Assembly: GCA_049324575.1 (NCBI GenBank)
Contig: JBMONI010000004.1
Location: forward strand, 43,960 to 107,959
Length of the DNA stretch: 64,000 bases
Source of the DNA: Candidatus Omnitrophota bacterium
GTDB lineage: Bacteria; Omnitrophota; Omnitrophia; Omnitrophales; Aquincolibacteriaceae
Direction: 5' to 3'
The stretch's first letter is position 1; every line of letters begins with the position of its first letter. This document shows, piece by piece, positions 43,882-63,084 of this stretch. Under the pieces are notes generated by a model. It worked only from the letters and a program-made list of their open reading frames with translations, searched no databases and was not told the origin of the DNA. A program made the position numbers and the translations under genes.

Positions 43882-44029
43882 GGCTCCCCCTCCTCTCGGG
43901 TTATTTACTTATCGGCACGATGTAAAAGTTCTTAATAAAGTATTAAAATAATGGGGCAAAAAAAAACCCCTAAATCCATTAAAACTATAGCATAGGATCC
44001 CCGAATTTCAAGGGCAGGGGGCGAATTAT

Positions 44030-44527: not shown

Positions 44528-44529
44528 GT

Positions 44530-44910: not shown

Positions 44911-44916
44911 GCGCTC

Positions 44917-45843: not shown

Positions 45844-45853
45844 GGGCCACCGC

Positions 45854-46369: not shown

Positions 46370-46382
46370 GGGATCGGGGGTC

Positions 46383-46697: not shown

Positions 46698-46876
46698 AAC
46701 TTTGATGAACCAACATCGAACCCCGGAGGTTCGGGATGGCCGGCACTTGAGGAATCATTCCTTAAGTCCTAAAACGCGGTTATTATACTCATTCCCGGGC
46801 GATTTGCCATCAGGATTCTTCGGTTTTTGAACTTTTTCGAGACCGCGGACGCCGACCTTCCGGAAGAAGTCCCGGC

Positions 46877-48748
46877 TCAACCGAAAATTTTGTTGTCGAG
46901 CGCCTTCAGGAGGGCAAAAACGCAGTGCTGGGTATAATCGATCCGCTGTTCGTTGTTCACTAGCGACTGGCGGAACCCCCCGATCGCTTTCTCCGGCTCG
47001 TCGAGGTAGAAGGCATTTTCCTCCGTATATTGCGTCGCCAAAGCAAACCGCAGAGCGCCCCGGAGCGAAGCACGGTACTTTTCGGCCTTCTCCTTGTCCC
47101 CGCGCAGGACAGCCAGCGCATAGGCATCGTTGATGCCTTCGGCGTAGGAAGCCGTGGAATTCGAAGGGTTTTTCTTGAACCCCCCGAGGAGGTCTTTGTA
47201 GGGACTTTCCAGGGGCTGGTGGGTGTCGATCAGCCAATCGTTCATTTCATAGATGAATGCCGCCAGCTCAGGATCGGGCTGGTCCCGGTAAAGGAGGAAA
47301 TAGGCCTGGGTCTGCCAGGGCACAAAAGCCGTGTTCTTGTTCCCCCGCCAGTAATCTCGGTAATAGGAAAAAGCACGCTGGACCGCGTCGCGATAGCGGG
47401 TATCTTTCGTTTCCTGATAGAGGCGCATGAGGGCAAGCATGGCCTCGCCGGGATAGTAATCGGTGCCGGTGTTCTTGTCCGAAAGGAAATAAGTCCGCAG
47501 CGAGCCGTCTTCCTGCTGTTGGCCCAAGATCCCTTCCGCCAAACGCCGGAGGAGTTCCTCCCGGTCCGGATAATCCGGCTGGTGGATCAAGGCCAGGACC
47601 GCGAAAGCGCTATAGGCCAGAGACGATTCGCCCTCAAGCTCGATGAAAGAGGTCTGCTGCTCTTCTTTCATAAAGCTCAGATAATGCCGAAGCCCCGCCG
47701 CGGAATGTTCTTTCAGGCGAGGATCTCCGAGAAAATCCCCCAGGGCCGCCATCGCCCACAACGCCGCCGTCTGGCGGACCTGATTGTTCTTGCCGGAATA
47801 GGCGTTCTTGCTCGGCAGGTACATGTATTCCAGAAGACCGGTCTCCGGATTCATCTGCCGCAGGAACCAGTCGCCCGCCAGGCGGATGCTCCGGCGGATG
47901 AGCGGCGGATCGATCGCCTCGACCGCAAGGAGCGGCTGATGCCGGTAAAGCTCGGTGATCTTCCCGCGGCGGTCGGCCAGGAAATTATCCGTCTCATAGC
48001 GGATGACTTCGGTCTCGGGATCGAGATAACAAGCCTCCGGCAAGCCGGCCTTTTGACAAAGTTGCCGGAGCGTTTTCTTGACCGTATAGTTCTTTTTGAT
48101 CGCGACCGACGGAATGTAAAAAGCGCGCTTATCCCCGGATTCAACCTTCAGTCCATGAATCCCCCGCTCGATCTCCGGTTCCAGCTTTTTTTCACGCCCC
48201 ACTGCTTGCGCGGTCCGGATCACGCTGCTCTGGTTTTGGACCGCTTCTTTGATTTGCTTGCGGTCCGCCCTCCCTTGTAAAGAGACTTGCGCCGGCACTT
48301 CCTTGCGGAGCGGCGTAAAATCCTCCGGCACCAGTTCGCCTTCGGCACTGATCCGCGTCCCTTCTTTCAGAAAGCTAAAGAGAAGCTGGGCGCTCCCTAA
48401 CTCAGCGGAAGTTAACGAAGCCCCGAAACGGTCATCTTTAAGACATTTATCGACGGCTTCCCGGATATCGGCGCCGAGACGGTCAGGCGCGTCCCGGTCC
48501 GCCGACCCGCTCTGGCAGCATCGCGTTTTTCCGTCTAAAAGGACTGAAATGTAGAGTTTGTCATAATCCTTCCCTCCCAGCGGACCCCGCGGCGCCGGCT
48601 CCGGGAGTGGGGATCCTTTCTCGGAGATCCGGTCCAACATCTCAAAAGCTTCTTTCACCAGAGCTTGACGCCACGGCTCTTGCGACGTTTCAGCGGCGCC
48701 TATCGCCCATCCGCCCCCCAGGAAAAGAAATACGATAGCGCCCCGCAT
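46877..48748 (-). CDS. Secreted/anchored two-domain protein: N-terminal AMMECR1-like domain plus C-terminal domain resembling an (alpha/alpha)6-barrel; paralog of the next gene
   Basis: Start MRGAIVFLFLGGGWAIGAAETSQ (signal-like). AMMECR1-like features: YISVLLDGKTRCCQSGSADRD...DDRFGASLTSAEL...IHGLKVESGDKRAFYIPSV. The C-terminal half (QVRQTAALWAMAALGDF..., DYYPGEAMLALMRLY..., FVPWQTQAYFLLYR) parallels 48795..50060. Confidence 0.55.
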   Translation of the reverse strand: MRGAIVFLFLGGGWAIGAAETSQEPWRQALVKEAFEMLDRISEKGSPLPEPAPRGPLGGKDYDKLYISVLLDGKTRCCQSGSADRDAPDRLGADIREAVDKCLKDDRFGASLTSAELGSAQLLFSFLKEGTRISAEGELVPEDFTPLRKEVPAQVSLQGRADRKQIKEAVQNQSSVIRTAQAVGREKKLEPEIERGIHGLKVESGDKRAFYIPSVAIKKNYTVKKTLRQLCQKAGLPEACYLDPETEVIRYETDNFLADRRGKITELYRHQPLLAVEAIDPPLIRRSIRLAGDWFLRQMNPETGLLEYMYLPSKNAYSGKNNQVRQTAALWAMAALGDFLGDPRLKEHSAAGLRHYLSFMKEEQQTSFIELEGESSLAYSAFAVLALIHQPDYPDREELLRRLAEGILGQQQEDGSLRTYFLSDKNTGTDYYPGEAMLALMRLYQETKDTRYRDAVQRAFSYYRDYWRGNKNTAFVPWQTQAYFLLYRDQPDPELAAFIYEMNDWLIDTHQPLESPYKDLLGGFKKNPSNSTASYAEGINDAYALAVLRGDKEKAEKYRASLRGALRFALATQYTEENAFYLDEPEKAIGGFRQSLVNNEQRIDYTQHCVFALLKALDNKIFG

Positions 48749-48794
48749 CCACGGAAAACCCCGGGGGCTTTTTGCGGTCCGGATGGGAAAAAAA

Positions 48795-50060
48795 CTATTT
48801 CTTTGCACGCCCTTTTCCTTTCGATCGTTTTTTGTCCGCTTTCTTTTCGGGACCGGCGCCGGCAAAATCCCCCTCCGGCGCGATCAGACCGTTCTCATAA
48901 GCGCCCAGGATCGCCATGACCGCATGCTGGACATGATCCACGCGGACTTCATCCGCAGTGGCCGTGGCTCGAAAACCTCCCGCCATCAACGGCGCGGTCC
49001 CGGCGCCTTGCGGGATCTGCAGCTGAAGAACGACCTCCAATCCTTCCCGAACGAAATTCGCATAACAGACCGTGCGTTTTTCATCGTTGAGTGCCCGGGC
49101 CACTTCATACGCCCGGTTGATCCCTTCCACCAGCGAGGCGGCGGAAATACTTCTGAAGTTATAATTTTCGCAAGTATCCCCTCGCCCGTATTTAGACGTC
49201 AAGTAATCCGCCATTTCAAAAATAAATTCGGCATAACGGGGGTCCGGATCGATCCGGTACAATTTGGCATAGGCCTGGAGCTGCCAGGGAATGAAGTCGG
49301 AACTCGGTTGCATGCGCCAAAAGCCCCGGTAATAGGGAAAGGCTTTCTCAACGATCCTCTGGTACGCTTCACGGCCATACGTTTTTCGCATCTGCGCCAG
49401 CGCAAGCAAGGCCTGGCCCGGATAAAAACTCTGCGTTCGATCCGTTTTCGCGCCTTCGAGTTCGCCGGCAAACGACAGCGCCTGCCCTTCCGCGGCCCGC
49501 GCTTCCCCGGGAGCGGGGAAAAAGGACCTCAATTTCCCATGTGAGCTCTGCAGCGTTTGGATCCCTCGCGCCAGACCCTGGGCGATATCGGCATAGCGAG
49601 CGGGATCGAGTTCAAGCATGGCAAGGATCAGAAAAGCGGAATACCCCAGCTTAAGCTGCCCGGGAGTCATATTCAGATAGTAATATTGCCCCGGATAATC
49701 GAAAGCCAAATGATCGGAGAAAAAGTCGAGGCCTTTCCGCGCAAGCCGGAGCAGGCGGTCATCCTGAAGATGCTGAGCAAGCGACGCGAGAGCCCAGGCC
49801 GCCGCCGTTTCTCTCAAACGCCCCCCGGCCAGTCCGCACGAGGTCTTTTTCGTCTGGTTCGCATAATTGATGAATTCCTCGTTTTCGTTATTGAGGAACC
49901 ACTCTCCGGCCGCCGTCAAAGCCGATTCGAAACGGCCGGGAGTAGCCCGACTCATTGTCTTCTCTGAGATCGAACCCGCGATTGTGATCGCTCCCCCCAT
50001 CACTACGGCAAGAGATATCCCCATGGCCCCGACGAGATGCTGGATGCGGGATCGCCTCAT
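48795..50060 (-). CDS. Secreted protein resembling an (alpha/alpha)6-barrel, with Lys-rich C-terminal tail; paralog of the C-terminal domain of 46877..48748
   Basis: N-terminal signal-like MRRSRIQHLVGAMGISLAVVMGGAITIAG. Motifs parallel the neighbour: RETAAAWALASLAQ, SFYPGQALLALAQMRKTY, FIPWQLQAYAKLYR. Tail ...KKADKKRSKGKGRAKK. Fold assignment is tentative. Confidence 0.5.
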   Translation of the reverse strand: MRRSRIQHLVGAMGISLAVVMGGAITIAGSISEKTMSRATPGRFESALTAAGEWFLNNENEEFINYANQTKKTSCGLAGGRLRETAAAWALASLAQHLQDDRLLRLARKGLDFFSDHLAFDYPGQYYYLNMTPGQLKLGYSAFLILAMLELDPARYADIAQGLARGIQTLQSSHGKLRSFFPAPGEARAAEGQALSFAGELEGAKTDRTQSFYPGQALLALAQMRKTYGREAYQRIVEKAFPYYRGFWRMQPSSDFIPWQLQAYAKLYRIDPDPRYAEFIFEMADYLTSKYGRGDTCENYNFRSISAASLVEGINRAYEVARALNDEKRTVCYANFVREGLEVVLQLQIPQGAGTAPLMAGGFRATATADEVRVDHVQHAVMAILGAYENGLIAPEGDFAGAGPEKKADKKRSKGKGRAKK

Positions 50061-50070
50061 TAATGAACCC

Positions 50071-51465
50071 CTATTTCGAATGTCTGAACCCCGGACTCAA
50101 TATCCCGAGGCATGCTCCCATCAAAGCACACAATAATAACGACATATTCACATGGTCAAGCATAAAACTAATCGACGCATGCCCCAGGATCATCAATACC
50201 GGAACAAAAAAACCCATGCCAAAAAGAAACTGGAATCGACTTGGCGTCCTTTGGAGCATAAGAACAGACTCGATGAAAAATACTAGAATAAAAAGAAAAT
50301 AGAACCAAGCGCCGAGACCCTCTTCCGCGAGAATGGTCAAATAATGGTTCATGGCTTTATAATCCGCCATGTAAACGTTTTGGGGAGAGGTTTTTTTGAA
50401 AGTCTTTCGGTACGGATAATATCCTTTGGTGCCGACACCCCACACGGGGTTTTCTTTGAACATTTCTACCGCATAGTTCGCCCCCCGAATATTATGCGCG
50501 AACGATTGCGGCTCTTCCATCTCATCTTGGAGAGTGCTGACCTCTTGCAACGTTGCCTTAAAATCAATGTTCGTTTTCAAAAATAAAAATAATAAACAGG
50601 CTATTAAAACGCATGGGATGAAGATCCGTCTCGATCGATATTTTAAAATACAGCCCCCTATGAATGTTATTACTCCCATGAGAAAAAAAATGATGGTCCC
50701 ACGTGAATTGAACGCCAAAATCGCAATAAATGAACTACCAATGGTTAGGGCGGGTATTAAAATCTGAATCAGATGGATCTGCCCTTTAATCGGCCGCATC
50801 TTTTTTTCATCATCGAATTGCATGAAGGAATAAATAAAATAACTTATGGAAAGGAAGAAACCAACAGCGAGGACCTCTCCAATCCAGTTCGCGTGGAATC
50901 GATTAGAAATAAGGTATTTTTCAACCGCAGGATGGAAATAAAGCCAATCGGAAGCAAAGGGATTAAGCCGAATGTCATATGCAGAAAGACTTCCCCTCGT
51001 TATTAGTGAAGGCAAAGATAATGAGCATAAGAATAGAACCATCCCTATCGAAACCGAAACGATACCCACAGCTCGCTTTCGAGAAGCAGAAAACACATAA
51101 GCAAGCGCCATGGTTCCTAGACAGAAAAACCAGACGATCGGCTGCTGCGTAAAATTCTCAACAAGAACGATTTTTACGTCTTTGTCTGGCCCATTACTTG
51201 TCGCTGAAAGGAAATAGGCAAATCCCAATCTTATGATTTGGTAAATGCAGAATACACAAAACATCCCAAAACATAATGGGATTCTACGAAGGCTTAAACG
51301 CACATCGCTATTGGCGAAAACAAGAAACAAAACGAGGGTGGAAAAAACCAGTAAACAGCGCAACTCCGCTAACGCAAAAGAATCGTAACCTTTCGAAAGA
51401 AACAATGCTCCGAGCAAGGCTGAGAAAAAAAAATACGGAATTTGTCTCAGATGGCTATTGACCAC
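50071..51465 (-). CDS. O-antigen ligase-like (Wzy_C family) polytopic membrane protein, cassette 3 partner; visibly lower GC than its neighbours
   Basis: 10-12 hydrophobic helices. Wzy_C signature NHYLTILAEEGLGAWFYFLFILVFF in the C-terminal part. GTG start at 51465. Paralogous to 55286..56746 and 59610..61031. Confidence 0.7.
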   Translation of the reverse strand: MVNSHLRQIPYFFFSALLGALFLSKGYDSFALAELRCLLVFSTLVLFLVFANSDVRLSLRRIPLCFGMFCVFCIYQIIRLGFAYFLSATSNGPDKDVKIVLVENFTQQPIVWFFCLGTMALAYVFSASRKRAVGIVSVSIGMVLFLCSLSLPSLITRGSLSAYDIRLNPFASDWLYFHPAVEKYLISNRFHANWIGEVLAVGFFLSISYFIYSFMQFDDEKKMRPIKGQIHLIQILIPALTIGSSFIAILAFNSRGTIIFFLMGVITFIGGCILKYRSRRIFIPCVLIACLLFLFLKTNIDFKATLQEVSTLQDEMEEPQSFAHNIRGANYAVEMFKENPVWGVGTKGYYPYRKTFKKTSPQNVYMADYKAMNHYLTILAEEGLGAWFYFLFILVFFIESVLMLQRTPSRFQFLFGMGFFVPVLMILGHASISFMLDHVNMSLLLCALMGACLGILSPGFRHSK

Positions 51466-51507
51466 AAAAAAATCGTTTTTCCAGACGCCAATTCTTTGCG
51501 GACCGAA

Positions 51508-54500
51508 TCATTCCTGATCGACCCATTCGCAGCAATCACACCGGACCATTTTCTTCCCTTTGGGATCGGTCGGATCCAGTTCTTTCGCAGTTCCATTTGC
51601 TTCGCATATCTCCTCAGGCGCCGGTTCGTCTGGATCCTGCGGATTCTGTTCATCCGGATCAGGGCGGGTATCTCCGACAGACGAGCAAACTTTATCGCTT
51701 GAAATCCCACAAAGCTGAACCCCCTCGCCTTGGCAACATTTGTCTTGAGATTCATCATCCCCATCATCGGCGTCATCCCCCGGATCGGTGTCATCCCCAT
51801 CTTCATCGCATTTACACCCGCCGACCCCTTGGCATCCGCACATGGTTCCTTCTTCCATCGCCTTCGCAAGCTGTTGAGCCATCTGTTTATGAAGGTTTTC
51901 AACCGAATCATTGGGATCTGCATCTTGCCCTTCCATATGACACGGCGTTGTTACACATCTTTCCGGTTTCGCAGGTTCTTGTTTTATTTCTCCACCCTCA
52001 CCCTGGACCTTGCACATGCTCATCCCCGGACACGAGCAGTCTTCTCCCGGCGTATTGCAATTTTCGTCGCCCGGCTTACACCAGAATGCGCAGGGATTTT
52101 CGATCCCCCAGGCCATACAACGCGCGGTTTGGCGGTCATAAAGATGTTTCGTGCGTTCCGAATCGCTCTTCGACACGCATTCGCCGGTCCAATCACTGCC
52201 CCAGCTGCTCGATGGAGGTATCGGATCTCCGCCTTCAAGACAGCCTTCACCGATGAAACTCACATGACAGTAATTCCCCGCGGGACATTCGCTGTCCGCC
52301 GTGCAATATCCTCCGCCGCTTCCCGCTTTTTCGCAAACCGAATTTTGGCAGACATACCCCGCGGCACAATCCGTATCTTTCGCGCAGGAGGTCGATAATG
52401 AACAGGCACAATAGCCGGTCGTCAGATTGCATTTCCCGGTCCCTCCAGCAGAGGCACAGTCCGAATCCGCTTTGCACAGCGCGGTATTCTTTCGGCAATT
52501 TCCCTGCACACAACATTCGCCCGATCCACATGGAGCAGAAGCCGAACAAGCGTTGCCGAGCGGCTGACAAATCGGTTCCACCGCAGGACAGGTCGTTCCC
52601 TGGCAAGTCGGCTGAAGACAATATTCCCCGGGCTTGCATCGAACACTGCCGCACTGCTCCCCCGTCGTGTTTTCCTGACAGATACCGCCGTAAGTGCTTT
52701 TGACGCAAATAAGATTGCAAGACGCTGAAGAACCCGTCGTCGGACAGCAATTGTTATGCGAAGTGCACGGGGTGATCCCCGCCTGCCCAAGACAGTAGCC
52801 GAACGTATCCGCAGAGGCTTGTCTCTGGCAACTATACCCAAACGAGCAGTTCATGTCGTCCATACACCGCCCGCCGGTGGTGTCAAAAACGCAAGAACCC
52901 AAGGCATCAGATGGTTTGATCTTTTGACATTTTTCGTAATTTTTGCAATCAGCGGCCGTCATGCAAGTCCCGACAGGCTTGCAATCTCCGAGCCCCGCGC
53001 TGCTCTGGAAGCACACATTTCCCGCCATACAATGCGCCGTTTCACGGCATTTTCCCGAAGGAATATTTTCGCAAAGTCCGTAGTCGTCGGAAGGCGCCGT
53101 ACGTTTGCAATACCCATTTTCACCGCAAAGAGAATCATCCTGGCAGGCATTGGCCTTGTTTTGGCATACTCCAGCAGCCCCTTCGGCACCCGCCTGGATA
53201 CAGGATTCATAGGATCGGCACCAGCTGTCATCTTCGCAAGTCCCCGGCACACGGCAGCGGCCGACATTCTCCCGGCCGCTCTTGATGAAACATTCCTCGC
53301 CGGCCGAACAGTCCCCTGGAGTCTCGCATTGTCCCTCGGCCATCGGCGTGCAAAGCCCGAGATCCTTATCGATATCTTCATGGGCCAGGTATTGGCAATA
53401 TTCCCCGTCTTGACACGGGTCCGAAAACTGACAGGCGTTCGCGTTCGCGGAACTCACCTTACAGACCCCGAAACGCTCGTTCGAAGAACTCCGGACGCAT
53501 TCCCGTCCGCTTGGACAATCCGCATTGGTACCGCACTGGCCGGGCGCCGGCGTTCCGCAACGGCCGTAATCATCGGCAGCGCTGACCTTCATACAAACCG
53601 TCCCGGCCCCGCCGCAATCCGAATCGGAGCCGCAGCGCGCAGGATCCGTAATGCATCGCCCGTATTGATCGGCATTGCGGAATTTTTGACAGAGCTCACC
53701 ATTCGCGCAACCGTCCGCGCCCTGGATATCGTAGCGGCAGGATCGTTCCGGATCGATCGAGCACTGCTGAGCAATGCAAACCATGCTTTCGCCGCAGTCG
53801 GCGTTCTCCTGACACTCGACATTCACGCACCGCGCGTCATAGCAAAACTGGTTCGCTCCGCATTCGCTGTCGGAGCCGCAACGGTCATAACACCGTCCGT
53901 CATAGCAGGCCCGCGGCGCGTCCGAGGGGCAATCCGTCGTGTAGGTTCCATCCCCGAGGTCGGTTTCTTGACAAGGTTCGCTGCAACCCCAATCGTCCGA
54001 GCACTCCGTCCCAGGCCCACCGCAAATGCTGTCGATCTTGCAATAGCAAGTATGCGTGGATGAGTTACACGCATGACCGGCCGCCGCACAATCCGAATCG
54101 AACGAACAGCGGTTTGAACGGTCCCCGACCACACAAGCCCCCCCCGGCTCCGAAGGCGAAGACCTGAGGCAAAATTGATCGCTCGGACAATCCGTATGCG
54201 CCGCGCATTCGCGGTCCGCGCAGCGCCCGTAGGGATCGCCCGGGCTGTCCTGTTTGCAGATCTTGGTCGGACTGTTGCAGTCCGTATCCGCCGTGCAATC
54301 GCCGGAAGACTTCCCGCGACAGATCCCGTATGCCCCCCCGCTCTTGTTCTCGCAAATATCCCCCGGCTTGCAGTCCCCGTCCGTTTGACATTCGCACCGC
54401 CCGGCCTCGACCGTGCCGCCGCTCACCGGCCCATCGGAACAGACGGAATAATCCTTGCCGGGCTTCACGCGGCAAACTTGACAGCCGGCACAATCGGTAT

Positions 54501-55134
54501 TGGTTTGGCAGGTCTTGGAAGGATCCAGCTGGCATTTGCCCGTGCTCAGTTCACAGACTTCTTCCGGTTCGCATTCGCTGTCCGCGCGACATCCGTCGAT
54601 ACAACCGCCCTGAGGCGCTCCCGAGGTCGTCCTTTTACAGAACTTTCCGGCGGGACAGTCTTCGCTGCTTTGACAGCCCGAAAAACATTTTCCGTATTCG
54701 TCACCGACCGATTCCTTGAGACAATGCTGGCCTGACTCGCAATCTCCATGGGTCTCGCATTCACCGCTCGATTTTCCGCGGCACAAGCCGTAAGGATCCG
54801 CCGAATTGGCCTTAAAACAGCTGTCCCCTGATCTGCAGTGCTCATCTTCTTGGCATTCGCATCGCCCTTCGGGAACATCCGCGCCGCTCACCGGGCCATC
54901 TACACATTTTTTAGGACTTGCGGCCAAATCACATACCTGACAACCAGAACAATCATCTGAACGAGTGCATTGATCTCGATCTTCAGTAATGCATATCTTA
55001 AGACTGCCGGTCTGTTTGCAATATTGGCCTGAGGGGCAATCGGAATCGACGGCACAAAAGAGAGCGAACGCGGTGACGGGAAAGGATAAAAAGACAGTAG
55101 CGACAAGAACGAACTGTATTAACCGCTTATACAA
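51508..55134 (-). CDS. Secreted cysteine-rich repeat protein (1,208 aa) with acidic Asp/Glu/Pro-rich C-terminal region
   Basis: Signal peptide MYKRLIQFVLVATVFLSFPVTAFA (TTG start at 55134 with AGGAGG 8 nt upstream). It contains dozens of ~35-aa units with pattern C-x3-4-(D/S)-x-(D/E)-C-x2-G-x2-C-x6-12-(Y/F)G-x-C, e.g. CETHGDCESGQHCLKESVGDEYGKC. The tail is DEDGDDTDPGDDADDGDDE...PDPDEQNPQDPDEP. Confidence 0.75.
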   Translation of the reverse strand: MYKRLIQFVLVATVFLSFPVTAFALFCAVDSDCPSGQYCKQTGSLKICITEDRDQCTRSDDCSGCQVCDLAASPKKCVDGPVSGADVPEGRCECQEDEHCRSGDSCFKANSADPYGLCRGKSSGECETHGDCESGQHCLKESVGDEYGKCFSGCQSSEDCPAGKFCKRTTSGAPQGGCIDGCRADSECEPEEVCELSTGKCQLDPSKTCQTNTDCAGCQVCRVKPGKDYSVCSDGPVSGGTVEAGRCECQTDGDCKPGDICENKSGGAYGICRGKSSGDCTADTDCNSPTKICKQDSPGDPYGRCADRECAAHTDCPSDQFCLRSSPSEPGGACVVGDRSNRCSFDSDCAAAGHACNSSTHTCYCKIDSICGGPGTECSDDWGCSEPCQETDLGDGTYTTDCPSDAPRACYDGRCYDRCGSDSECGANQFCYDARCVNVECQENADCGESMVCIAQQCSIDPERSCRYDIQGADGCANGELCQKFRNADQYGRCITDPARCGSDSDCGGAGTVCMKVSAADDYGRCGTPAPGQCGTNADCPSGRECVRSSSNERFGVCKVSSANANACQFSDPCQDGEYCQYLAHEDIDKDLGLCTPMAEGQCETPGDCSAGEECFIKSGRENVGRCRVPGTCEDDSWCRSYESCIQAGAEGAAGVCQNKANACQDDSLCGENGYCKRTAPSDDYGLCENIPSGKCRETAHCMAGNVCFQSSAGLGDCKPVGTCMTAADCKNYEKCQKIKPSDALGSCVFDTTGGRCMDDMNCSFGYSCQRQASADTFGYCLGQAGITPCTSHNNCCPTTGSSASCNLICVKSTYGGICQENTTGEQCGSVRCKPGEYCLQPTCQGTTCPAVEPICQPLGNACSASAPCGSGECCVQGNCRKNTALCKADSDCASAGGTGKCNLTTGYCACSLSTSCAKDTDCAAGYVCQNSVCEKAGSGGGYCTADSECPAGNYCHVSFIGEGCLEGGDPIPPSSSWGSDWTGECVSKSDSERTKHLYDRQTARCMAWGIENPCAFWCKPGDENCNTPGEDCSCPGMSMCKVQGEGGEIKQEPAKPERCVTTPCHMEGQDADPNDSVENLHKQMAQQLAKAMEEGTMCGCQGVGGCKCDEDGDDTDPGDDADDGDDESQDKCCQGEGVQLCGISSDKVCSSVGDTRPDPDEQNPQDPDEPAPEEICEANGTAKELDPTDPKGKKMVRCDCCEWVDQE

Positions 55135-55285
55135 CTTCGACCCCTCCTTCCGGCTATTGCGATACTTCTTACAAATCTTTATTATCTTTTGTTAATACAA
55201 CAATAGCCGACAAATTTTCAAAAAGCAAGGCCTACTTGCAGAATTTTTATATAGCAAATTCTAGCAATTTTAAACTGTCCGGTTT
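55135..55285 (-). promoter_or_regulatory. AT-rich intergenic region with a strong Shine-Dalgarno sequence; putative internal promoter for cassette 3
   Basis: 151-bp low-GC spacer between the ligase-like stop (55286) and the Cys-rich start (55134). GGAAGGAGGGG precedes the TTG start. Confidence 0.3.
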
Positions 55286-56746
55286 TCAACTTGAATGACG
55301 AAATCCCGGTTTTAAAACTCCCAGGCAAACGCCCATTAATAAATACAAGAGCAGCGCCATGTTGAAATTTCCGAGCATTTGACTGATGGAAGCATGCGCG
55401 AGGATCATCATGACCGGGCAAAAGACCGAAAGTCCCGCCATGAATTGAAAGCGGCTTCCGGTCCGCACGAGTCCCCGGACCGCGTAAAAAACAAAGGTCA
55501 GCAAAAATCCATAATAGAGCCATGCCCCGAACCCCTCTTCGGCCCGGATCAAAAGGTAATGGTTCATCGGATGAGCCGCCGCCAAGGTCGGTTCCACACG
55601 CCCCCGGTCTACTTCCGTCACGACTTTCGGAAAGACTTCCTCATATCGCCCGGTGCCCACTCCCCACACCGGCGCTTTTTTTGCCATGGCCAACGCCGCT
55701 TTCGCCCCGAGGATATTCTGCTGAAGACTTTGGGGATCCCGCACTTCCCGGCCCAAGGTTCTCACTTCCTGGATAACGGCCGGGGATGAGAGCGCAAATC
55801 CCGCCAGGGCGATGGCCAGAAGTCCGAGCCCCCACAGGACTTTTCGGTAATGCCCGTATTTGAGGAGGAGCCCCGCCGCGAACAAGAATAGCGCGGCCCC
55901 GAAGAAAAGGATCGTCCCGCGGGAATAAAAAGCAAAGACCGCCAAGCCCGCGAAGGCGATCACAGCGAGCAGGCTGACCATCTGAAGCATATTGATCGAC
56001 ATCCGGTTGGCCGAACGGCGGCGGACGGATTCGATATCCATAAATGCATAAATCAATAATCCCAGCGCGACAAAAAAACCCACGGCGATCACATCCCCCG
56101 CCCAGTTCCAATGCGCAAAGCGTCCGAAGATCATTCGGCCCACCACCGGGAGTTCGCTTAAAAAAGAAAAATAGAAACTGTGGGCACTGTCCTTGAGATA
56201 ATCCTGCCCGCGAACGCTTGTGAGCCAGGGCAGGCAATTCACAAGGAGGAAGACCGTTCCATAGACCAGGGACCAGAGCAATGTCCGCACCTTGCTCCGG
56301 CGGGAGCAGAGGCCGTAGCTTATAAGGAAGAGAGCCAGGAAGAAGAACCACTCGGTGGATTGCCCGAAAACCGGCGACGCGCCCGCTTCGACGGCCTGAT
56401 AGTGTTCGTGGCTTGAATGCATAAGCCGGATCCCCTGATACAGGAGGAAAGCCCCGAAAACGGTTCCCGCAGGTGACAGGAGCCCCCGGAGAAGGTTTCG
56501 GTCGAGGAAAAAACCGATTGCCACGCCCCCCATAAGGAGGAGGGCTCCGATCTTCCTCAATTCCACCGTCGCGGCATAATCGTAGCCGACCGCAAACAAG
56601 ACGAGAACCGCATAGGCGCAAAAGAGGAAGAAAATCGCCTTCCGCATCACCGCCTGCGCGGCTGCAGCCAGAGCGCCCATCCGTCCCTGAACTCTCGGAG
56701 CGATCAGGATCGCGGCGTGATTTTGTTCCAGCGATGAGGTTAACAT
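55286..56746 (-). CDS. O-antigen ligase-like (Wzy_C family) polytopic membrane protein, cassette 2 partner; GC-rich
   Basis: Signature NHYLLIRAEEGFGAWLYYGFLLTFVFY and multiple TM helices. The most-upstream start overlaps the end of the 56740..59364 gene by 7 nt. The real start may be the internal MGALAAAAQ (near 56680). Confidence 0.7.
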   Translation of the reverse strand: MLTSSLEQNHAAILIAPRVQGRMGALAAAAQAVMRKAIFFLFCAYAVLVLFAVGYDYAATVELRKIGALLLMGGVAIGFFLDRNLLRGLLSPAGTVFGAFLLYQGIRLMHSSHEHYQAVEAGASPVFGQSTEWFFFLALFLISYGLCSRRSKVRTLLWSLVYGTVFLLVNCLPWLTSVRGQDYLKDSAHSFYFSFLSELPVVGRMIFGRFAHWNWAGDVIAVGFFVALGLLIYAFMDIESVRRRSANRMSINMLQMVSLLAVIAFAGLAVFAFYSRGTILFFGAALFLFAAGLLLKYGHYRKVLWGLGLLAIALAGFALSSPAVIQEVRTLGREVRDPQSLQQNILGAKAALAMAKKAPVWGVGTGRYEEVFPKVVTEVDRGRVEPTLAAAHPMNHYLLIRAEEGFGAWLYYGFLLTFVFYAVRGLVRTGSRFQFMAGLSVFCPVMMILAHASISQMLGNFNMALLLYLLMGVCLGVLKPGFRHSS

Positions 56747-59364
56747 GGCTTCTTCGCTTTCAGACGATAATTACATTCTTCGCAATAGTAATTACCATCG
56801 ACAACGCTGAACTTCCCCGTGCCATCGGCGACCATACAAACATCGATATCTTTTTCCTGTTGCGAGTCCCATTCATAATCAGGATATTCGCGATCCGGTG
56901 AATATTTACTTTCCGGCGCACAGCACTGCGAATGAAGCGTACGCGTCTTGGCGCAAACCCGGTCCGTGGGCGGAGCCCCATGAGGGATTTCCATTCCTCC
57001 GCAAACACGATCGCCCGCCCGGTAGGTCTTGATATTATCGATCGAGGACGGGCTCATGAGGGAGGCTGCACTGTCCGAGCACCACTGCCAGCTATTGGAG
57101 CTTTTTTTATAGCACGGTTTAGTACCCGTGATGCGTGTCCCCGACTTGGCCTGTGCGGTATAGGCGAAGTAATAACAGCCATCCCCGGCATAGCCGACAT
57201 CCCCATAACCCGCCGCACACGTAGGAAGCGGGTCATTATCATCACCGCGCGACACACAACTTCCTTCCCCGTCTCGGATCTGACACCGCATTCCCTTGGG
57301 GCAATCCGAACTGCGCCTGCACCCATTTCCATCATCATCGTCATCGTCGTCGTCACCTTTGCCGCCACCGCCGCCTCCTCCGCCGCCGCCGTCATCATCC
57401 CCGCCGTCATCATCCCCGCCGTCGTCATCCCCGCCGTCATCATCCCCGTCGTCATCATCCCCGCTGTCATCATCATCGCCTTCATCGGACGATTTGCATA
57501 CACCGCTGGCGGAGCCGCTTACAATATCGCATTTCATATTGCATGTTCCGTTTATGGTGATCGCGCAGCAATCTGCATCACTTTGACAACCCTCGGCCAT
57601 TTTGCACACGCCTTTTCCATCGCTGATCACACAAGTATAGAAACACAGGGACGGTCCCGTGCAACAATCGGCAGTCGAGCTACAGCCCGTATCGATCGTC
57701 TCACACACCCCTTTCCCGTTAGTGATCTTACAAGTTTTGTTGCATGGAACTTGTCCATTACAACAATCGGCCGCTGTCGCGCACCCCGTATCGATCGTCT
57801 TACAAACTCCTTTCCCGTTAGTGATCTCGCAAGTTTTGTTGCATGGAACTTGTCCATTACAACAATCGGCCGCCGTCGCGCACCCCGATGAGATGCTAAC
57901 GCAATACCCGGCCCGGTCGTCCGCGGTTTTGAATTCGCATTTTTGGCCCGTCGCACAATCCGTTTTGCTATAGCAGCGTCCTTCCATTTTATTCAAAACA
58001 CAACGATACATGATCTTAGTAGTTCCAGTGCTGATATCCGGTACCGTGATCTGCTCGCCCCCGATATCGCACATTTCATGGCTCTCGCAATCACCTCCGG
58101 ACTCACACAATTCTTTCTTCTCACAGGCCCCGCCGCCCTCAGGACAATACTGCCAGCTTGCCGGACATCCGTTCTCTTCCGAGCAAGGCCTCCCTGTGCA
58201 ATTCCCGTACTGATTCCCCGACAGTTTTTCGCACATGGCCGCACCCTGGCATTGGCTATCCGTACTGCAATCCCCATAGCTTCGCCCCTGACAAATCCCG
58301 AACTCCCCTCCGTTCTTGTTTTCGCAGACACCGCCGTTCTTGCAGTCCAAATCTCCTTGGCACTCGCATCGGCCACTGGTGACCCGGTTACCGCTTACGG
58401 GCCCATTCACGCAAATCGAATAATTTTTCCCTTCTTTGGGACGGCAAACCATGCATCCCGAGCAGTCCTCATTGCTATCGCAGGTTTTCCCGGGATCGAA
58501 TTCACAAAACCCGGTCGAGGTTTGGCAAACCTCTTCAGGCTCACAATCCGAGCTGCTCCGGCATCCGGATTCGCATTTCCCGTAACTCGCCCCCGGGTAG
58601 GGCGCTTTGCAGAACGTGCCCGCGGCGCAATCGTCATTGGACCCGCAGGTTGCCAAACAAACCCCGTAGCGATCTGAAAAATTCTGCTTATAGCATTGGC
58701 TGCCCGGCTGGCATTGCGAATCGCTTTCGCATCCACATTGGCCGCCGCTTCCCCCCGAAGGAGAATCCACGCAGGTCCCGTTACTGCAATATTGGCAGCC
58801 GGTTTGGCATTCCGCATTGGACCGGCATCCCGGCATGCACCCCCCTTTTGCGGCGTTCGGAGAATTCTTCTGGCAATATTCTCCGGCCGCGCATTGGTCA
58901 TGACTTTGGCACTGCGTCACACAGCTCCCGACCTCATCCCCCGCATTCGCCTTTTTGCAAACCGTCCCGCTCTCGCAGTCCGAATCAAGGAGGCATTCAC
59001 CGGTCGAAGGCCCGCGGCACACCCCGAGCGGCTCTCCCGGATCTCCCTTGATACAGACGTCCCCGGTTTTGCAATGTTCGGCCGATTCGCATTCGCAACG
59101 CCCATCTCCCGCGCCCGTCCCGCTGGTCGGCCCGGCCACACATTTTTTGATGCTTCCGACGAGACCGCAGACTTCGCAACCCGAGCAATCATTGTTGTTG
59201 TTGCATTCATTGGGTCTCACGAGACAAACCCCGAAGCCCGGTGTAAAAAGATGACAATATTTTTCCGGCGTGCATTCACTATCCGAGGTGCAGGCCCATA
59301 ATGCATCTTGGGCTAAAAAAGCCAGCAACAAAGCAAAACTAAATGGTATGAAGCGCCGGTTCAT
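56740..59364 (-). CDS. Secreted cysteine-rich repeat protein (874 aa from ATG) with a ~50-aa poly-Asp/Gly tract
   Basis: ATG 59364 (MNRRFIPFSFALLLAFLAQDALWA; GAGGTGG SD). The track's GTG at 59373 adds MEK. It has the same C-rich unit as 51508..55134. Three tandem ~33-aa units GCATAADCCNGQVPCNKTCEITNGKGVCKTIDT are present, the third diverged. The acidic run is DEGDDDDSGDDDDGDDDGGDDDGGDDDGGDDDGGGGGGGGGGKGDDDDDDDDG. Confidence 0.75.
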   Translation of the reverse strand: MNRRFIPFSFALLLAFLAQDALWACTSDSECTPEKYCHLFTPGFGVCLVRPNECNNNNDCSGCEVCGLVGSIKKCVAGPTSGTGAGDGRCECESAEHCKTGDVCIKGDPGEPLGVCRGPSTGECLLDSDCESGTVCKKANAGDEVGSCVTQCQSHDQCAAGEYCQKNSPNAAKGGCMPGCRSNAECQTGCQYCSNGTCVDSPSGGSGGQCGCESDSQCQPGSQCYKQNFSDRYGVCLATCGSNDDCAAGTFCKAPYPGASYGKCESGCRSSSDCEPEEVCQTSTGFCEFDPGKTCDSNEDCSGCMVCRPKEGKNYSICVNGPVSGNRVTSGRCECQGDLDCKNGGVCENKNGGEFGICQGRSYGDCSTDSQCQGAAMCEKLSGNQYGNCTGRPCSEENGCPASWQYCPEGGGACEKKELCESGGDCESHEMCDIGGEQITVPDISTGTTKIMYRCVLNKMEGRCYSKTDCATGQKCEFKTADDRAGYCVSISSGCATAADCCNGQVPCNKTCEITNGKGVCKTIDTGCATAADCCNGQVPCNKTCKITNGKGVCETIDTGCSSTADCCTGPSLCFYTCVISDGKGVCKMAEGCQSDADCCAITINGTCNMKCDIVSGSASGVCKSSDEGDDDDSGDDDDGDDDGGDDDGGDDDGGDDDGGGGGGGGGGKGDDDDDDDDGNGCRRSSDCPKGMRCQIRDGEGSCVSRGDDNDPLPTCAAGYGDVGYAGDGCYYFAYTAQAKSGTRITGTKPCYKKSSNSWQWCSDSAASLMSPSSIDNIKTYRAGDRVCGGMEIPHGAPPTDRVCAKTRTLHSQCCAPESKYSPDREYPDYEWDSQQEKDIDVCMVADGTGKFSVVDGNYYCEECNYRLKAKKPC
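57330..57490 (-). repeat. Low-complexity GTC/ATC-rich coding tract encoding poly-Asp/Gly
   Basis: The plus strand reads catcatcatcgtcatcgtcgtcgtc...gtcatcatccccgcc repeated. In frame this gives (DDDGG)n and G10. Confidence 0.7.
57600..57890 (-). repeat. Three tandem ~99-bp coding repeats (two near-identical, one diverged) in the 874-aa Cys-rich gene
   Basis: cccgtatcgatcgtct[c/t]acaaac...caacaatcggccgc[t/c]gtcgcgcacc occurs twice in succession and is preceded by a diverged copy. They encode GCATAADCCNGQVPCNKTC[E/K]ITNGKGVC[K/E]TIDT. Confidence 0.7.
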
Positions 59365-59373
59365 TTTTTCCAC

Positions 59374-59609
59374 CTCGGTTGAAGATTTTATATCTCATTC
59401 GATCCATTTTGATCATTTCCTTATTTGCGCTGTTCTAATATAAGAATTTGCATAAGTTTTGATAGAAATCTATTGAATTATGGCGAGAGGAAAAAAAGGC
59501 TATCCGGGAGGCAACAAAAGCCGTGGCCAGATCAAAGTCCCCCGAGGGGCCTAGGGAGCGCCCTTCAAAGTCTGCTTCGGCCGGAAGAAGCCGGTGCGAG
59601 AGATCCGTC
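59374..59609 (-). promoter_or_regulatory. Intergenic region between cassette 1 and cassette 2; putative promoter of the 874-aa Cys-rich gene
   Basis: ~235-bp spacer with lower GC near the start codon. No confident motif assignment. Confidence 0.25.
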
Positions 59610-61031
59610 TTAGCGGGTATGGCTGAACTTGGGATGGAGGATCCCGAGGCAGGCTCCCATGAAAGTGTAGACAAGGATGTTCATGTTGAAGTTCTCAAGG
59701 AGTGGATGGATCGTCGCGTGGCCGTGCACCATAACGAGCCAGGAAAAGATCGCTAATCCGATAATAAATTGATACCGGCTGGCCGCATGCAAAAGGCCGC
59801 TGATCACTTCCGCGAAAAACAGGATCAGAAAAAGATAATAGAGATAGGCGCCGACACCTTCTTCAGCCCATATCTGCAAATAATGATTCATGGCATAGTC
59901 TTCGGCCAAAGTCATTCGATGATCCGGTCGTAGTCCGGTTTTTTCTTGAATCAAGGGATATAAACGTAAATAGCCGTCGGTCCCGACACCCCAAACTGGA
60001 AATTCTCGGTGCATGGCTAAAGCGATCTTCCCCGCGTGTAAATTTTCACTAAAGCTCGTCGGGCTTTTGATTTCATTTTCCAGCGTTTGGACTTCCTGAA
60101 ATGTCGATTTGAAACTCCCGCTACTAAAGAAATATCCGACAACGAGCAATCCGGCCATCCCCGCAGCCAGCCAAACCCTGGATGCCTGAAGCTTCCACAA
60201 GAGCACGCTGACAAAAACAAGAACAGCCATAACAAACCAACTGATGCTCCCGCGCGAAAAGAAACCCAGGATCGAGAGCGTTCCAAGCCCCACCGCCAGC
60301 ATGGGGAAAAGGATTTCGAACAGATTAACCCGACTGCGGCTCGCCCTCCGGCTCCCTTCGCGATCGAATTGCACGAATGCATAAATAAATGAGGCCGCAC
60401 CCAGGAACACTCCGATCGCGACGAGATCCCCCATCAGGTTATGCCAGGCGAAGGTGCCGAGAAAATATTTCGAAATTAATGGGTGACAATACAGAATCGG
60501 GAAGAAAAAAATCTGAAGCCCAGGAATAACGTAGCCCCAGCTCCCGTCCTGAAATAATGACGGGAGGTGATTCGCTATGAGAAAAAGAACACTCCCGAGG
60601 GTGACGCTGACGAGAGCTTTAGTGGGACGGCGCGATGAAAAAAGAACATAGGAAATTGTCATCAGCGAAAAATAAAAAAACCAGTCTAAAGGCGCCTTGG
60701 AATAAAATTGAAAAGGCTCCCAAAAAAGAACACGATCATGCGGTTGTCCCTTCGCAAAGAAAAGAACTGCCCACAAAAATCGCAAAATCTGGAATAGCAG
60801 CAATGCAATAAAACAACAAAGCGCACTGCTAAGTGAGATGCCACGGCGGGGTTTTAAAACCCGAAAATTGACAACAAATAACACCAACAGAGCAAATGCC
60901 AACAGCATACGAAAATTCGCATGGTGTTCTTCGCCATGCTTGAAGGTGTGATTGTCGAATCCAAGCGCAAGGAACGCGATGGCGATAAAAGCACAGAACA
61001 GTACAAGATACCCCTTTGCAGAGCTGCGCAA
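59610..61031 (-). CDS. O-antigen ligase-like (Wzy_C family) polytopic membrane protein, cassette 1 partner; intermediate GC
   Basis: Signature NHYLQIWAEEGVGAYLYYLFLILFFA and multiple TM helices. TTG start at 61031 per the track (alternative internal ATG further in). Confidence 0.7.
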   Translation of the reverse strand: MRSSAKGYLVLFCAFIAIAFLALGFDNHTFKHGEEHHANFRMLLAFALLVLFVVNFRVLKPRRGISLSSALCCFIALLLFQILRFLWAVLFFAKGQPHDRVLFWEPFQFYSKAPLDWFFYFSLMTISYVLFSSRRPTKALVSVTLGSVLFLIANHLPSLFQDGSWGYVIPGLQIFFFPILYCHPLISKYFLGTFAWHNLMGDLVAIGVFLGAASFIYAFVQFDREGSRRASRSRVNLFEILFPMLAVGLGTLSILGFFSRGSISWFVMAVLVFVSVLLWKLQASRVWLAAGMAGLLVVGYFFSSGSFKSTFQEVQTLENEIKSPTSFSENLHAGKIALAMHREFPVWGVGTDGYLRLYPLIQEKTGLRPDHRMTLAEDYAMNHYLQIWAEEGVGAYLYYLFLILFFAEVISGLLHAASRYQFIIGLAIFSWLVMVHGHATIHPLLENFNMNILVYTFMGACLGILHPKFSHTR

Positions 61032-61107
61032 ATCATCCCCTTTCGCAATCAGGTGCCGATTAATTCCCTATCCTCACCTGCATGACCGTCGAGTTCCCTG
61101 CAATTTA

Positions 61108-61977
61108 CTACTCTCGTTTTGGGTCTTTTTGGTACTTGCAGCAAAATAGTGAATCCCTCGAATTGCCTTCCGTACAGTGCCCGGCCCCTACATAGACATA
61201 ATCTTTAGGCGGTGGGCACGAGCTGGGAAAGATCGAACCTTCGTCGCAAGTCGGAGTTCCGCCATTTTTGCTACACGGCTTTGTAACATCAATGCCACTT
61301 ATCGCGCCATCATTGCACACGATTTTTCGCCGCGCCGGAGCCGCGGGCTCATCGACTATACATTTCCAGGAGGGGTTATCATGATCTTGCCACGGACTGA
61401 CACACTCGGGCTCCCCCATGCTTGCCACCCCCCCATGTTTTTTACATTTTTCGTCCGCTTGTTCTTCATCACTAGGATTTCCTCCAGGAGGGTCCGTGGG
61501 ATCTGTCGGATCTGTTTTAGGATCACCACCCGGAGGAGTCTTCTTGTCCTTACAGCAATCCGACGGTAAAGCAGGCCCCGCGCTTGCGCCGGGACATTGA
61601 GGTGTTCCCGTGCGCTCCTGGTTCGCGCCACATCCATTCTGGGGACTGCCTCCACTGGGACAAGTCGCTTTCGCTTCTGTATAAATCCTGCCTTTTGCAT
61701 TGCATATGCAACCAGACTCCGCTTGGTTCGTACAGTATTCATCCTTTGCGGTATAACATTCCATGCCCTCACTACTCTGAGGAAGATTACTCCACGAATG
61801 AGCTCCCGTGCACTGCCTGGAAGGCGCACATACATGCTTATTTCCTCCACCTCCGCCGCCCCCTGCGCCTCCTCCCTTACCATCCTTAGCTGGCGCCGCG
61901 TATGTTTCACCCATCATGAGGCAAAAGGCGCAGAAAAAACACCCCACTATGCCCAAATACGTTCGTGAGATCTTCAT
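61108..61977 (-). CDS. Small secreted cysteine-rich protein (289 aa) with poly-Gly and Pro/Asp/Thr-rich low-complexity segments
   Basis: ATG 61977 with GGAGGAG SD. Signal peptide MKISRTYLGIVGCFFCAFCLMMGETYAAPA. Contains GGGAGGGGGGGN and PGGDPKTDPTDPTDPPGGNPSDEE and about 26 Cys. Confidence 0.7.
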   Translation of the reverse strand: MKISRTYLGIVGCFFCAFCLMMGETYAAPAKDGKGGGAGGGGGGGNKHVCAPSRQCTGAHSWSNLPQSSEGMECYTAKDEYCTNQAESGCICNAKGRIYTEAKATCPSGGSPQNGCGANQERTGTPQCPGASAGPALPSDCCKDKKTPPGGDPKTDPTDPTDPPGGNPSDEEQADEKCKKHGGVASMGEPECVSPWQDHDNPSWKCIVDEPAAPARRKIVCNDGAISGIDVTKPCSKNGGTPTCDEGSIFPSSCPPPKDYVYVGAGHCTEGNSRDSLFCCKYQKDPKRE

Positions 61978-62217
61978 CGTTTTCTCCTCCTGAGAGAATT
62001 TTTATAGCTTAAAAGAACAGAACTTTTTAAAAACATCGATGAGCGATACCTAGCATAAGTATACATGGCAGAAAGACTAATTTCAAATCGTTTAAAAGTA
62101 GTTCAATAGAGGGTGATTTTGAGCATTTTTCTCCTTTTTCTGATTAAAAGATCTTGATTTTTTTTAGGCGTCTAATTTTAAGTCCTGGGATTTGGAGGCT
62201 TCCCCTCTTCCAGAAGG

Positions 62218-62247
62218 GCGTAGGGCGCACGAAAGTGTGCCCTGCGG
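62218..62247. repeat. REP-like imperfect palindrome with GTAGGGC...GCCCTG core
   Basis: gcgtagggcgcacgaaagtgtgccctgcgg. It shares its arms with the palindrome at 6458..6487 and with the inverted copy at 62341..62367. Confidence 0.45.
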
Positions 62248-62340
62248 TTGGCTCTGTGGACTTCCGAAGAACCCCTTCCCTGATGCCTTCCAACCAAAGA
62301 GCGGTCCGGCACTGCAACGGAAGAATATCGATGTTATCCA

Positions 62341-62367
62341 TACAGGGCACGCGGAAGTGTCCCTACG
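62341..62367. repeat. REP-like imperfect palindrome, opposite orientation to 62218..62247
   Basis: tacagggcacgcggaagtgtccctacg. Its reverse complement is CGTAGGGACACTTCCGCGTGCCCTGTA, matching the ends of the element ~95 bp upstream. Confidence 0.4.
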
Positions 62368-62397
62368 ATCTTAAAAAAACTTTGGAAAATAAAGCCG

Positions 62398-63084
62398 TTA
62401 GCGCACGATGCTGCGAACGAACGCATCGCTTGGGGCAAGGCCGCTGGACTGAAGGCTCTCGAGGGTCTTTTTCGCGGTCGTTTTGGATTCGAAGGCATTG
62501 GCGCAAACTTGATAGTACTCCCCGCTCGGAATGACAAAGCCGTCAAAACCTTTCTCTTCCAGTTTCTGGATCTGGCGGGTCGCGGCAGACTCGGTCTTGT
62601 AGGTCAGCACCTGGATCGTGTATTTGCCGTCCTGGCGGCGTTCTGTGATCGTGCGGGTCGCGCGCGTCGTCGTTGTTTCACTCTGGAAGGTCGTGACCAC
62701 CCCATCCCCGGGGATTGCCGGCGTTTCCGGTTCACGCACGGAGTCCCCGTCGATCTGGACCGCCGGCGCGGCGACCGGCTCGATCACATTGACGCGCATC
62801 GAGGCCAGGCCATCGACCTTGGCGCGGAGATCCTCGACCTGGGCCGTGTATTTGGCTTCGATCTTTTTCACCGTAGCCGCGGCGCCCTGTTTTCCGGCGT
62901 CATAGCCCGCCGAATAGACCCAGACCCCGGCGACCATAGCGCCGATTCCGAGAAAGAGAAGATGATCCAGCCGGAAGGTTAATGAAAAACGCTCGAAAAA
63001 AGGCGTTCGCGGGACCCCCATTTTCCGGGGCAAGCTGCTGGCAACATCAAAAAGATCGGCCTGGCGGCCACGTAAAATTTCCAT
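62398..63084 (-). CDS. SPOR-domain membrane protein, second copy
   Basis: TM LLFLGIGAMVAGVWVY. C-terminal SPOR-like KYTIQVLTYKTESAATRQIQKLEEKGFDGFVIPSGEYYQVCANAFESKTTAKKTLESL. The most-upstream start overlaps the GH1 gene by 38 nt; the real start may be the internal MGVPRT at about 63021. Confidence 0.6.
   Translation of the reverse strand: MEILRGRQADLFDVASSLPRKMGVPRTPFFERFSLTFRLDHLLFLGIGAMVAGVWVYSAGYDAGKQGAAATVKKIEAKYTAQVEDLRAKVDGLASMRVNVIEPVAAPAVQIDGDSVREPETPAIPGDGVVTTFQSETTTTRATRTITERRQDGKYTIQVLTYKTESAATRQIQKLEEKGFDGFVIPSGEYYQVCANAFESKTTAKKTLESLQSSGLAPSDAFVRSIVR

Follow-up and report, generated by a model that had tools for sequence, protein, structure and literature searches.

The window analysed here, a 64,000-nt stretch of a 162-kb contig from a metagenome-assembled genome (MAG) of a Candidatus Omnitrophota bacterium, carries on its minus strand a tandem array of six genes in which secreted cysteine-rich (Cys-rich) proteins alternate with membrane proteins of the Wzy_C family. 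The same DNA is present in Logan assemblies of run SRR32167788. All six genes are real open reading frames (ORFs), and their order in the direction of transcription is C3, W3, a 236-nt spacer, C2, W2, a 151-nt spacer, C1, 42 nt and W1, followed after 10 nt by ORF421 and then ORF662. W1 (50071..51465; 464 aa) encodes a Wzy_C-family membrane protein with a WaaL fold and is AT-shifted over the entire gene, and C1 (51508..55134; 1208 aa, ~13% Cys), a secreted repeat protein, lies 42 nt upstream of it. W2 (55286..56746; 486 aa) is a paralog of host-like composition, the start of which overlaps by 7 nt the stop of C2 (56740..59373; 877 aa), also a secreted Cys-rich repeat protein and host-like in codon usage. 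W3 (59610..61031; 473 aa), a paralog of intermediate composition, has upstream of it C3 (61108..61977; 289 aa, 8% Cys), a small secreted ORFan. C1, C2 and C3 each have an N-terminal signal peptide and consist of 8-14% Cys.

Base composition of the paired genes

The window has a GC content of 0.553, with GC at third codon positions (GC3) of 0.63-0.73 in its ordinary genes and a composition of 0.32-0.47 in its intergenic DNA. Against this background the total GC of the three Wzy_C-family genes was 0.416 in W1, 0.563 in W2 and 0.481 in W3, in agreement with an earlier note on this DNA that had, by eye, called W1 AT-rich at roughly 40% GC, W3 intermediate and W2 GC-rich like the host. GC3 differed strongly among the three, as the same note had expected (W1 0.452, W2 0.671, W3 0.544; fourfold-degenerate GC 0.497, 0.745 and 0.608, respectively), and third-position counts were distinct in every comparison (chi-square; W1 versus W2, P = 1.3e-11; W2 versus W3, P = 7e-5; W1 versus W3, P = 6e-3). 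Given its amino-acid content and host codon usage, W1 deviates at z = -10.8 and W2 at z = -0.6, and the correlation of relative synonymous codon usage (RSCU) with the host is 0.21 for W1 and 0.83 for W2. The shift in W1 extends to first and second positions (GC1 0.437, GC2 0.359) and to the encoded residues, with FYMINK fractions of 0.338, 0.243 and 0.285 and GARP fractions of 0.211, 0.305 and 0.237 in W1, W2 and W3. W3 is itself heterogeneous, with a GC3 of 0.44-0.46 in its head (first ~190 codons) and of 0.58-0.60 in its tail.

Two simple causes of the low GC of W1 were ruled out. Hydrophobic amino-acid content does not explain it, as the GC3 gap persists at 95 aligned invariant degenerate residues (W1 0.463, W2 0.632, W3 0.495). 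Nor is low GC general to the family or to membrane proteins, given the host-like W2 and the absence of a dip in 13 other loci (below); W2, being of the same family and topology, serves as an internal control against an artefact of AT-rich membrane proteins.

The earlier note had also described the Cys-rich partners as uniformly GC-rich. This holds for total GC (C1 0.563, C2 0.549, C3 0.532) and fails at third positions (GC3 0.577, 0.579 and 0.479), where C3 and both ends of C1 are deviant. Conditioned on amino-acid content, the GC3 deviation of C3 reaches z = -6.6. Over its last 164 codons C1 has a GC3 of 0.418 (z = -5.2) and over its first 120 codons one of 0.454 (z = -4.7), making it a compositional mosaic of a host-like core with both ends AT-shifted at third positions. 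RSCU correlations with the host follow the same division (C2 0.86, C1 core 0.86, C3 0.10). The richness of the C1 tail in Asp and Glu, for which the host prefers GAT and GAA, was considered as a source of its low GC3 and rejected, since the deviation given above already accounts for amino-acid content.

C1 and C2 share a homologous N-terminal region of ~420 residues (BLASTP E 9e-67), and C1 has weak Pfam matches to DUF7107 and Dickkopf_N. No sequence similarity of C3 to C1 or C2 was detected, and the only match to C3 in a database search was C3 itself. The first 420 residues of C1 matched no database entry at E ≤ 1e-5, C1 itself and C2 included. C2 contains, at 57329-57950, three 99-nt tandem repeats that encode a 33-aa Cys-rich unit (CATAADCCNGQVPCNKTCEITNGKGVCKTIDTG-like), adjoined by a long Asp/Gly low-complexity run.

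Low-GC3 blocks across gene borders

Segmentation of the third-position series across the operons by optimal dynamic programming resolved two low-GC3 blocks; greedy binary segmentation had missed internal blocks. Block A (50113..52002, GC3 0.443) comprises W1, the C1-W1 spacer and the last ~165 codons of C1, and block B (60462..61911, GC3 0.463) comprises nearly all of C3, the spacer that follows it and the first ~190 codons of W3. Outside the blocks GC3 is 0.61 between them, 0.68 downstream and 0.71 upstream, and their surroundings (C2, W2, the C1 core and both flanks) are host-like; the RSCU correlation with the host is 0.31 in block A and 0.28 in block B. The boundaries of block A have support intervals of 51979-52018, tight and inside C1, and of 50046-50206, which includes the W1 stop codon. 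Those of block B are 61879-62401 and, for the broad inner boundary, 59814-60669. At equal segment number, border-crossing blocks gave a log-likelihood (lnL) of -3716.8 and W1 and W3 as units one of -3745.9, a difference of 29 units in favour of the blocks. Per-gene GC is misleading at this locus, where the true units are sub-genic tracts that join part of a Cys-rich gene to part of a ligase gene.

The same segmentation found no low-GC3 block in a neighbouring 9,994-codon gene, where GC3 varied only between 0.63 and 0.69. A third low-GC3 tract was located at 2642-4591 (650 codons, GC3 0.411, flanks 0.74 and 0.56), inside an unrelated HEAT-repeat ORF. This tract is about as long as blocks A and B, and its position in an unrelated gene suggests that tract import, if that is what produced it, is a general process. 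The ORF around it (window 2-6319, minus strand; at least 2106 aa) is the second large ORF of the window, is rich in HEAT repeats and runs off the left end of the window.

As the window derives from a MAG, the mosaic could in principle be a product of assembly, namely a chimera of co-occurring Omnitrophota populations of differing GC joined at shared k-mers. The Logan and MAG assemblies used the same reads and different assemblers, and two Logan contigs of run SRR32167788 match the window with 0 mismatches over 40071-56826 and 57844-64000. In each of these contigs one block stands complete with its host-like flanks. The only break in the Logan assembly, within the C2 repeats (56826-57844), speaks for an artefact, and across it only the MAG assembly joins the C3-W3 part to the remainder. 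C1 and W3, however, stay in frame across the junctions, and no closer relative of W1 was found in the assembly of the same sample. Contig chimerism is thus unlikely, and we give an assembly artefact very little credence as the source of the blocks.

Gene calls at the array are incomplete in both assemblies. In the NCBI annotation W3 is reduced to a 274-aa 3' fragment with its start at 60434, beside the compositional junction. The Logan gene calls have antisense ORFs in place of C1, and C3 is present only in Logan. Automated gene callers thus miss or truncate the Cys-rich genes and W3, leaving such modules under-represented in protein databases.

The ligase-like subfamily, its Cys-rich partners and neighbouring genes

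All three membrane proteins matched Pfam Wzy_C (PF04932) above its gathering cutoff of 31.7 bits (W1, 49.4 bits, E 5e-13; W2, 37.2 bits, E 3e-9; W3, 42.3 bits, E 9e-11). Their pairwise identity is 35-37%, and in the C-terminal conserved domain W1 and W2, the paralogs of lowest and highest GC, are mutual best matches with 43% identity. An AlphaFold (AF2) model of W1 built from 67 family members had a predicted local distance difference test score (pLDDT) of 91.2 and a predicted template modelling score (pTM) of 0.94. A Foldseek search of PDB with this model returned a single match at E ≤ 0.001, the WaaL O-antigen ligase 7tpg_B (E 5e-6, TM 0.56-0.63). The Wzy_C domains and this fold match bear out, at the level of fold, the 'ligase-like' label that the earlier note had given these proteins. 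A sequence search of PDB with the ligases gave no genuine match (spurious ones only), NCBIfam models did not match W1-W3 at E ≤ 0.01, and a word-indexed homolog search with the three paralogs matched only themselves.

An exhaustive HMMER search of 1.84 billion representatives recovered 92 at E < 1e-30, separated by a gap from generic Wzy_C proteins, which begin at E ~1e-12; judged by this profile search, the 92 representatives define a discrete subfamily of putative ligases. All named members and all recovered genome loci belong to the Omnitrophota. Neighbour-joining (NJ) trees of 79 full-length family representatives with outgroups placed W1, W2 and W3 in one clade, with a bootstrap of 91/100 (43/60 after Dayhoff-6 recoding), which argues against independent capture from different distant donors. 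One further sequence, P0005 (accession MFZ5803067), is likely the sister of this clade, a position found in 69-71/100 NJ bootstraps. Its accession falls in the same numbering run as those of W1, W2 and W3 (MFZ5801707, 1709 and 1711), and for this reason P0005 was taken as a copy from the same MAG, very probably the fourth, on another contig. When the ligase alignment was split at the W3 junction as a check for chimeric history, the N-terminal tree was unresolved.

Conserved residues point to common descent as well. The family-consensus motif N-x-E-G-a-x-R-A includes E327 and R331 (W1 numbering), each found in 54/67 sequences. Both are lost in W1, W2 and W3, and R331 is also lost in P0005 (locus L019, 1309-2745), a pattern that, read as a shared derived state, supports common descent of these copies. 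R255 is conserved in 67/67 and H374 in 65/67 family sequences, and W1 is intact, keeping most family-invariant residues. The catalytic residues in the periplasmic loop of Escherichia coli WaaL are R215, R288 and H338, those of PglL include R224 and H349, and R255 and H374 are similarly spaced; by spacing only, we infer that R255 and H374 are equivalent to WaaL R215 and H338. The spacing of R331 matches that of the second catalytic Arg in WaaL and PglL, and the four copies in this MAG may therefore have altered chemistry.

The pairing of a ligase gene with a Cys-rich gene is not confined to the array. Related loci were sought with a 12-sequence family alignment, and we examined 13 independent informative loci outside the window (6 GTDB genomes, 6 further metagenome contigs and the P0005 locus), counting contigs that end at the ligase gene as uninformative. 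In every one of them (13/13), one to three same-strand ORFs with 6-15% Cys and a signal peptide lie directly upstream of the ligase gene, frequently overlapping or abutting its start. The same arrangement is found in all three modules of the window, and the only ligase gene without a Cys-rich upstream ORF is a second copy in L008. By this comparison the pairing is strongly conserved and constrained. The earlier note had reached constraint from base composition; its conclusion stands on the 13 loci and not on the GC argument. Partners in other genomes have DUF4215/Myxococcus-type Cys repeats and are related to each other and not to C1, C2 or C3, so that the labile component across genomes is the Cys-rich partner and not the ligase. 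In the same 13 loci ligase GC3 is close to that of its neighbours, and the dip in W1 is therefore specific to this locus and not shared by the family. Soon after the signal peptide, a short (V/I)(V/I)PLP-like motif occurs in partners from L002 (7491-9959), L005 (9038-9763), L006 (8086-9753) and L004 (3229-4290), where it might be a recognition or processing site; it is absent from C1, C2 and C3.

Single-copy members (L019, which is Logan contig SRR32167788_4967, and L002, L003, L005, L008 and L015) share a broader context. The Cys-rich ORF or ORFs and the ligase gene are accompanied by an alpha/beta-hydrolase (S9-like), an opposite-strand GGDEF/HAMP protein, a tetratricopeptide repeat (TPR) protein, a ~460-aa protein, a Poly_export (Wza-like) protein and a Wzz+AAA_31 (Wzc-like) protein. 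From its domain content this neighbourhood is an exopolysaccharide-export-type locus, and the three window copies sit outside such a context. A role as a polysaccharide ligase or polymerase is possible for family members in this canonical setting.

Downstream of W1, two genes of host-like composition (46877..50060, minus strand) belong to the same operon as C1 and W1. ORF421 (48795-50060) starts 10 nt past the W1 stop, and ORF662 (46877-48865) combines an N-terminal AMMECR1 domain with a C-terminal half paralogous to ORF421. ORF421 and this C-terminal half have weak matches of alpha/alpha-toroid type (GH88, pectic acid lyase and LanM C-terminal). The 151-nt spacer between the C2-W2 and C1-W1 units (55135..55285, minus strand) is AT-rich (GC 0.35-0.39), has a terminator-like hairpin after W2 (55239-55225, a consensus match only) and probably holds a terminator and a promoter. 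The 236-nt spacer between W3 and C2 (59374..59609, minus strand), AT-rich near C2, probably contains the promoter of the C2-W2 unit. Overall, promoter and terminator consensus scans performed no better than chance. The 9,994-aa single ORF (6515-36499, minus strand) has a host-like GC3 of 0.647, and Pfam shows only a weak PG_binding_1 stretch in it, near aa 2862-2887. A tRNA-Ala(CGC) gene lies just upstream of this ORF (36903-36978). Giant genes are a known trait of Omnitrophota (bioRxiv 10.1101/2023.11.21.568195).

Origin and possible function of the array

We propose that a two-gene module occurring throughout Omnitrophota forms a lineage-specific tandem array at this locus; in the module, a gene for a signal-peptide Cys-rich protein is followed by one for a WaaL-fold (Wzy_C) membrane ligase, the frames often overlapping or abutting. 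The ligase would transfer an undecaprenyl-pyrophosphate-linked glycan onto the neighbouring Cys-rich protein in the periplasm or otherwise process it, and by analogy with known enzymes such glycosylation or processing is its most likely role. The AT-shifted tracts of 1.45-1.9 kb would have been imported by recombination from Omnitrophota relatives of lower GC that had the same module, or from a mobile element, as yet unsampled, that had it. The Cys-rich part would have travelled together with the ligase part, as opposed to a swap of the membrane gene alone, and W2 and C2 would be the resident, ameliorated copy. Import is favoured because the AT shift of the tracts affects every codon position and at least one border is very sharp, and the AT-shifted amino-acid composition of W1 points to a long time spent under AT pressure. 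Among Omnitrophota genomes with family members GC contents range over 0.42-0.56, and W1 is closest to a 44%-GC MAG (RSCU r = 0.57, dinucleotide distance delta* 51) rather than to its host (r = 0.21, delta* 115). Taken as a whole, the combination of a module array with tract import from lower-GC relatives is the best explanation we have, and we put its chances at about even.

Several observations weigh against import. Atypical composition and codon usage with sharp borders, as expected of an acquired tract, are present, but the phylogenetic incongruence or donor also expected of one was not found: W1-W3 are monophyletic, and no protein among ~15 billion exceeds 36% identity to any of the three. 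W1 groups with W2, W3 and the genome's fourth copy, with which it has a common loss of family-conserved residues, and a donor, if there was one, would need to be a close, much lower-GC relative with the same paralog. All trees are NJ, and after Dayhoff-6 recoding the fourth copy is recovered as sister in only 7/60 bootstraps. The borders of the blocks, where the earlier note had suggested looking for recombination junctions, have no junction repeats (only short, chance-level repeats) and no tRNA, integrase or transposase genes; the sole tRNA found, at 36903, lies away from them. A scan of viral contigs gave no relatives. The dinucleotide test is weak, since ligase genes of other genomes differ from their own loci by delta* 59-115. 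Finally, the deviant segments besides W1 are the least conserved ones (the ORFan C3, the acidic C1 tail and the variable N-terminal half of W3), which fits drift in place.

Drift of this kind is the main alternative, although a less likely one. Under it, the copies were duplicated within the lineage, and weakly constrained, rarely expressed or non-recombining segments decayed to an AT-rich mutational equilibrium, out of reach of the selection or GC-biased gene conversion by which GC3 is held high in the rest of the DNA. The clade of the three ligases and the fourth copy, with derived losses at E327/R331 in common, is as this account would have it; so are the failure to find a donor or a mobility signature, the GC3 of W1 (~0.45), which is near intergenic composition, and the low conservation of the deviant segments other than W1. 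W2, however, is equally divergent in protein sequence and yet fully host-like. W1 is intact, with a confident fold model and most family-invariant residues, and is thus under purifying selection, and its GC3 is low even at invariant residues. The border inside C1 is very sharp (40-nt support), and native-gene GC3 is otherwise near-uniform in the window, the giant gene included. The earlier note had offered a different account, in which the membrane genes were acquired or replaced independently by xenologous displacement; on this account only they would have come in, from different donors, beside resident GC-rich partners. That W1 is deviant throughout, that block A ends at the W1 stop codon, that the three ligase genes stand at three composition levels and that the partners are similar in total GC (0.53-0.56) would all agree with it. 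The blocks nevertheless cross gene borders, the ligase parts are no more deviant than C3 and the C1 tail, and genes as units make the poorer model by the 29 lnL units given above. The three ligases are monophyletic, the labile side of the pair is the Cys-rich one, and, as C3 lacks homology to C1 and C2, the three pairs do not represent a single partner family with swapped ligases. Independent acquisition of the membrane partners is not borne out by these results, and we regard it as improbable.

Compared with characterised systems, the proposed array is closest in fold to WaaL of Cupriavidus metallidurans (PDB 7TPG), with which it has in common the Wzy_C domain and the fold of the W1 model. 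Unlike WaaL genes, the array genes are not in a lipopolysaccharide-core locus, have no waa genes nearby and show no sequence match to characterised WaaL; the array-family ligases are preceded by a secreted Cys-rich gene, and the window copies lack the consensus E327 and R331. TIGR03097 of NCBIfam, the exosortase-associated O-glycosylation ligase, offers another parallel, as a Wzy_C-type protein in an exopolysaccharide-type locus with TPR and Wzc-like proteins such as surround the fourth copy (L019). However, W1-W3 have no NCBIfam match, and the loci examined showed no exosortase or PEP-CTERM genes. PglL and PilO (TfpO) resemble the array, whose module has a conserved and often translationally coupled gene order, in belonging to the Wzy_C superfamily and in having the enzyme gene co-oriented with and adjoining a secreted-protein gene. 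Genes for such O-oligosaccharyltransferases often adjoin those of their substrates, as for 21/31 PglL homologs and for pilA-pilO (PMC3643930), and similar adjacency here suggests that the Cys-rich protein may be the acceptor. The neighbours in the present case are Cys-rich repeat proteins instead of pilins, and the canonical Omnitrophota context also has Wza/Wzc-like, TPR and GGDEF genes.

In surface-polysaccharide loci, wzx and wzy have unusually low GC, which has been read as horizontal transfer from lower-GC sources (PMC3715488), and hypervariable polysaccharide cassettes have been reported in Omnitrophota (bioRxiv 10.64898/2026.05.20.726742). As in O-antigen and capsule loci such as Salmonella rfb, membrane glycan genes at the array lie far below genome GC and the locus is divided into GC segments. 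At the array, by contrast, the effect is limited to some of the paralogs, the sub-genic tracts extend over gene borders, and other Omnitrophota show no dip in the orthologous ligase gene. Mosaic composition is a familiar signature of surface-glycan loci, and the array, a locus of this type, shows a variant of that well-known pattern.

The module appears undescribed, as literature searches found no description of a Cys-rich protein paired with a WaaL-fold ligase. This conserved, uncharacterised module, a Cys-rich secreted protein and then a WaaL-fold ligase, marks Omnitrophota and is multiplied in this genome. If the ligase modifies its neighbour, the module would represent a new class of substrate-linked O-glycosylation enzymes and provide a testable entry into the surface biology of a phylum without cultured representatives. 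A bolder reading, which we hold only tentatively and consider rather unlikely, is that of a phylum-specific, undescribed surface-protein system in which a WaaL-fold subfamily (~90 clusters at 50% identity) modifies or anchors a hypervariable upstream Cys-rich protein, with four copies in this MAG and with cassettes of acceptor tail and ligase exchanged between populations. If true, such exchange would be a mechanism of antigenic or host-range variation in these putatively epibiotic or predatory nanobacteria.

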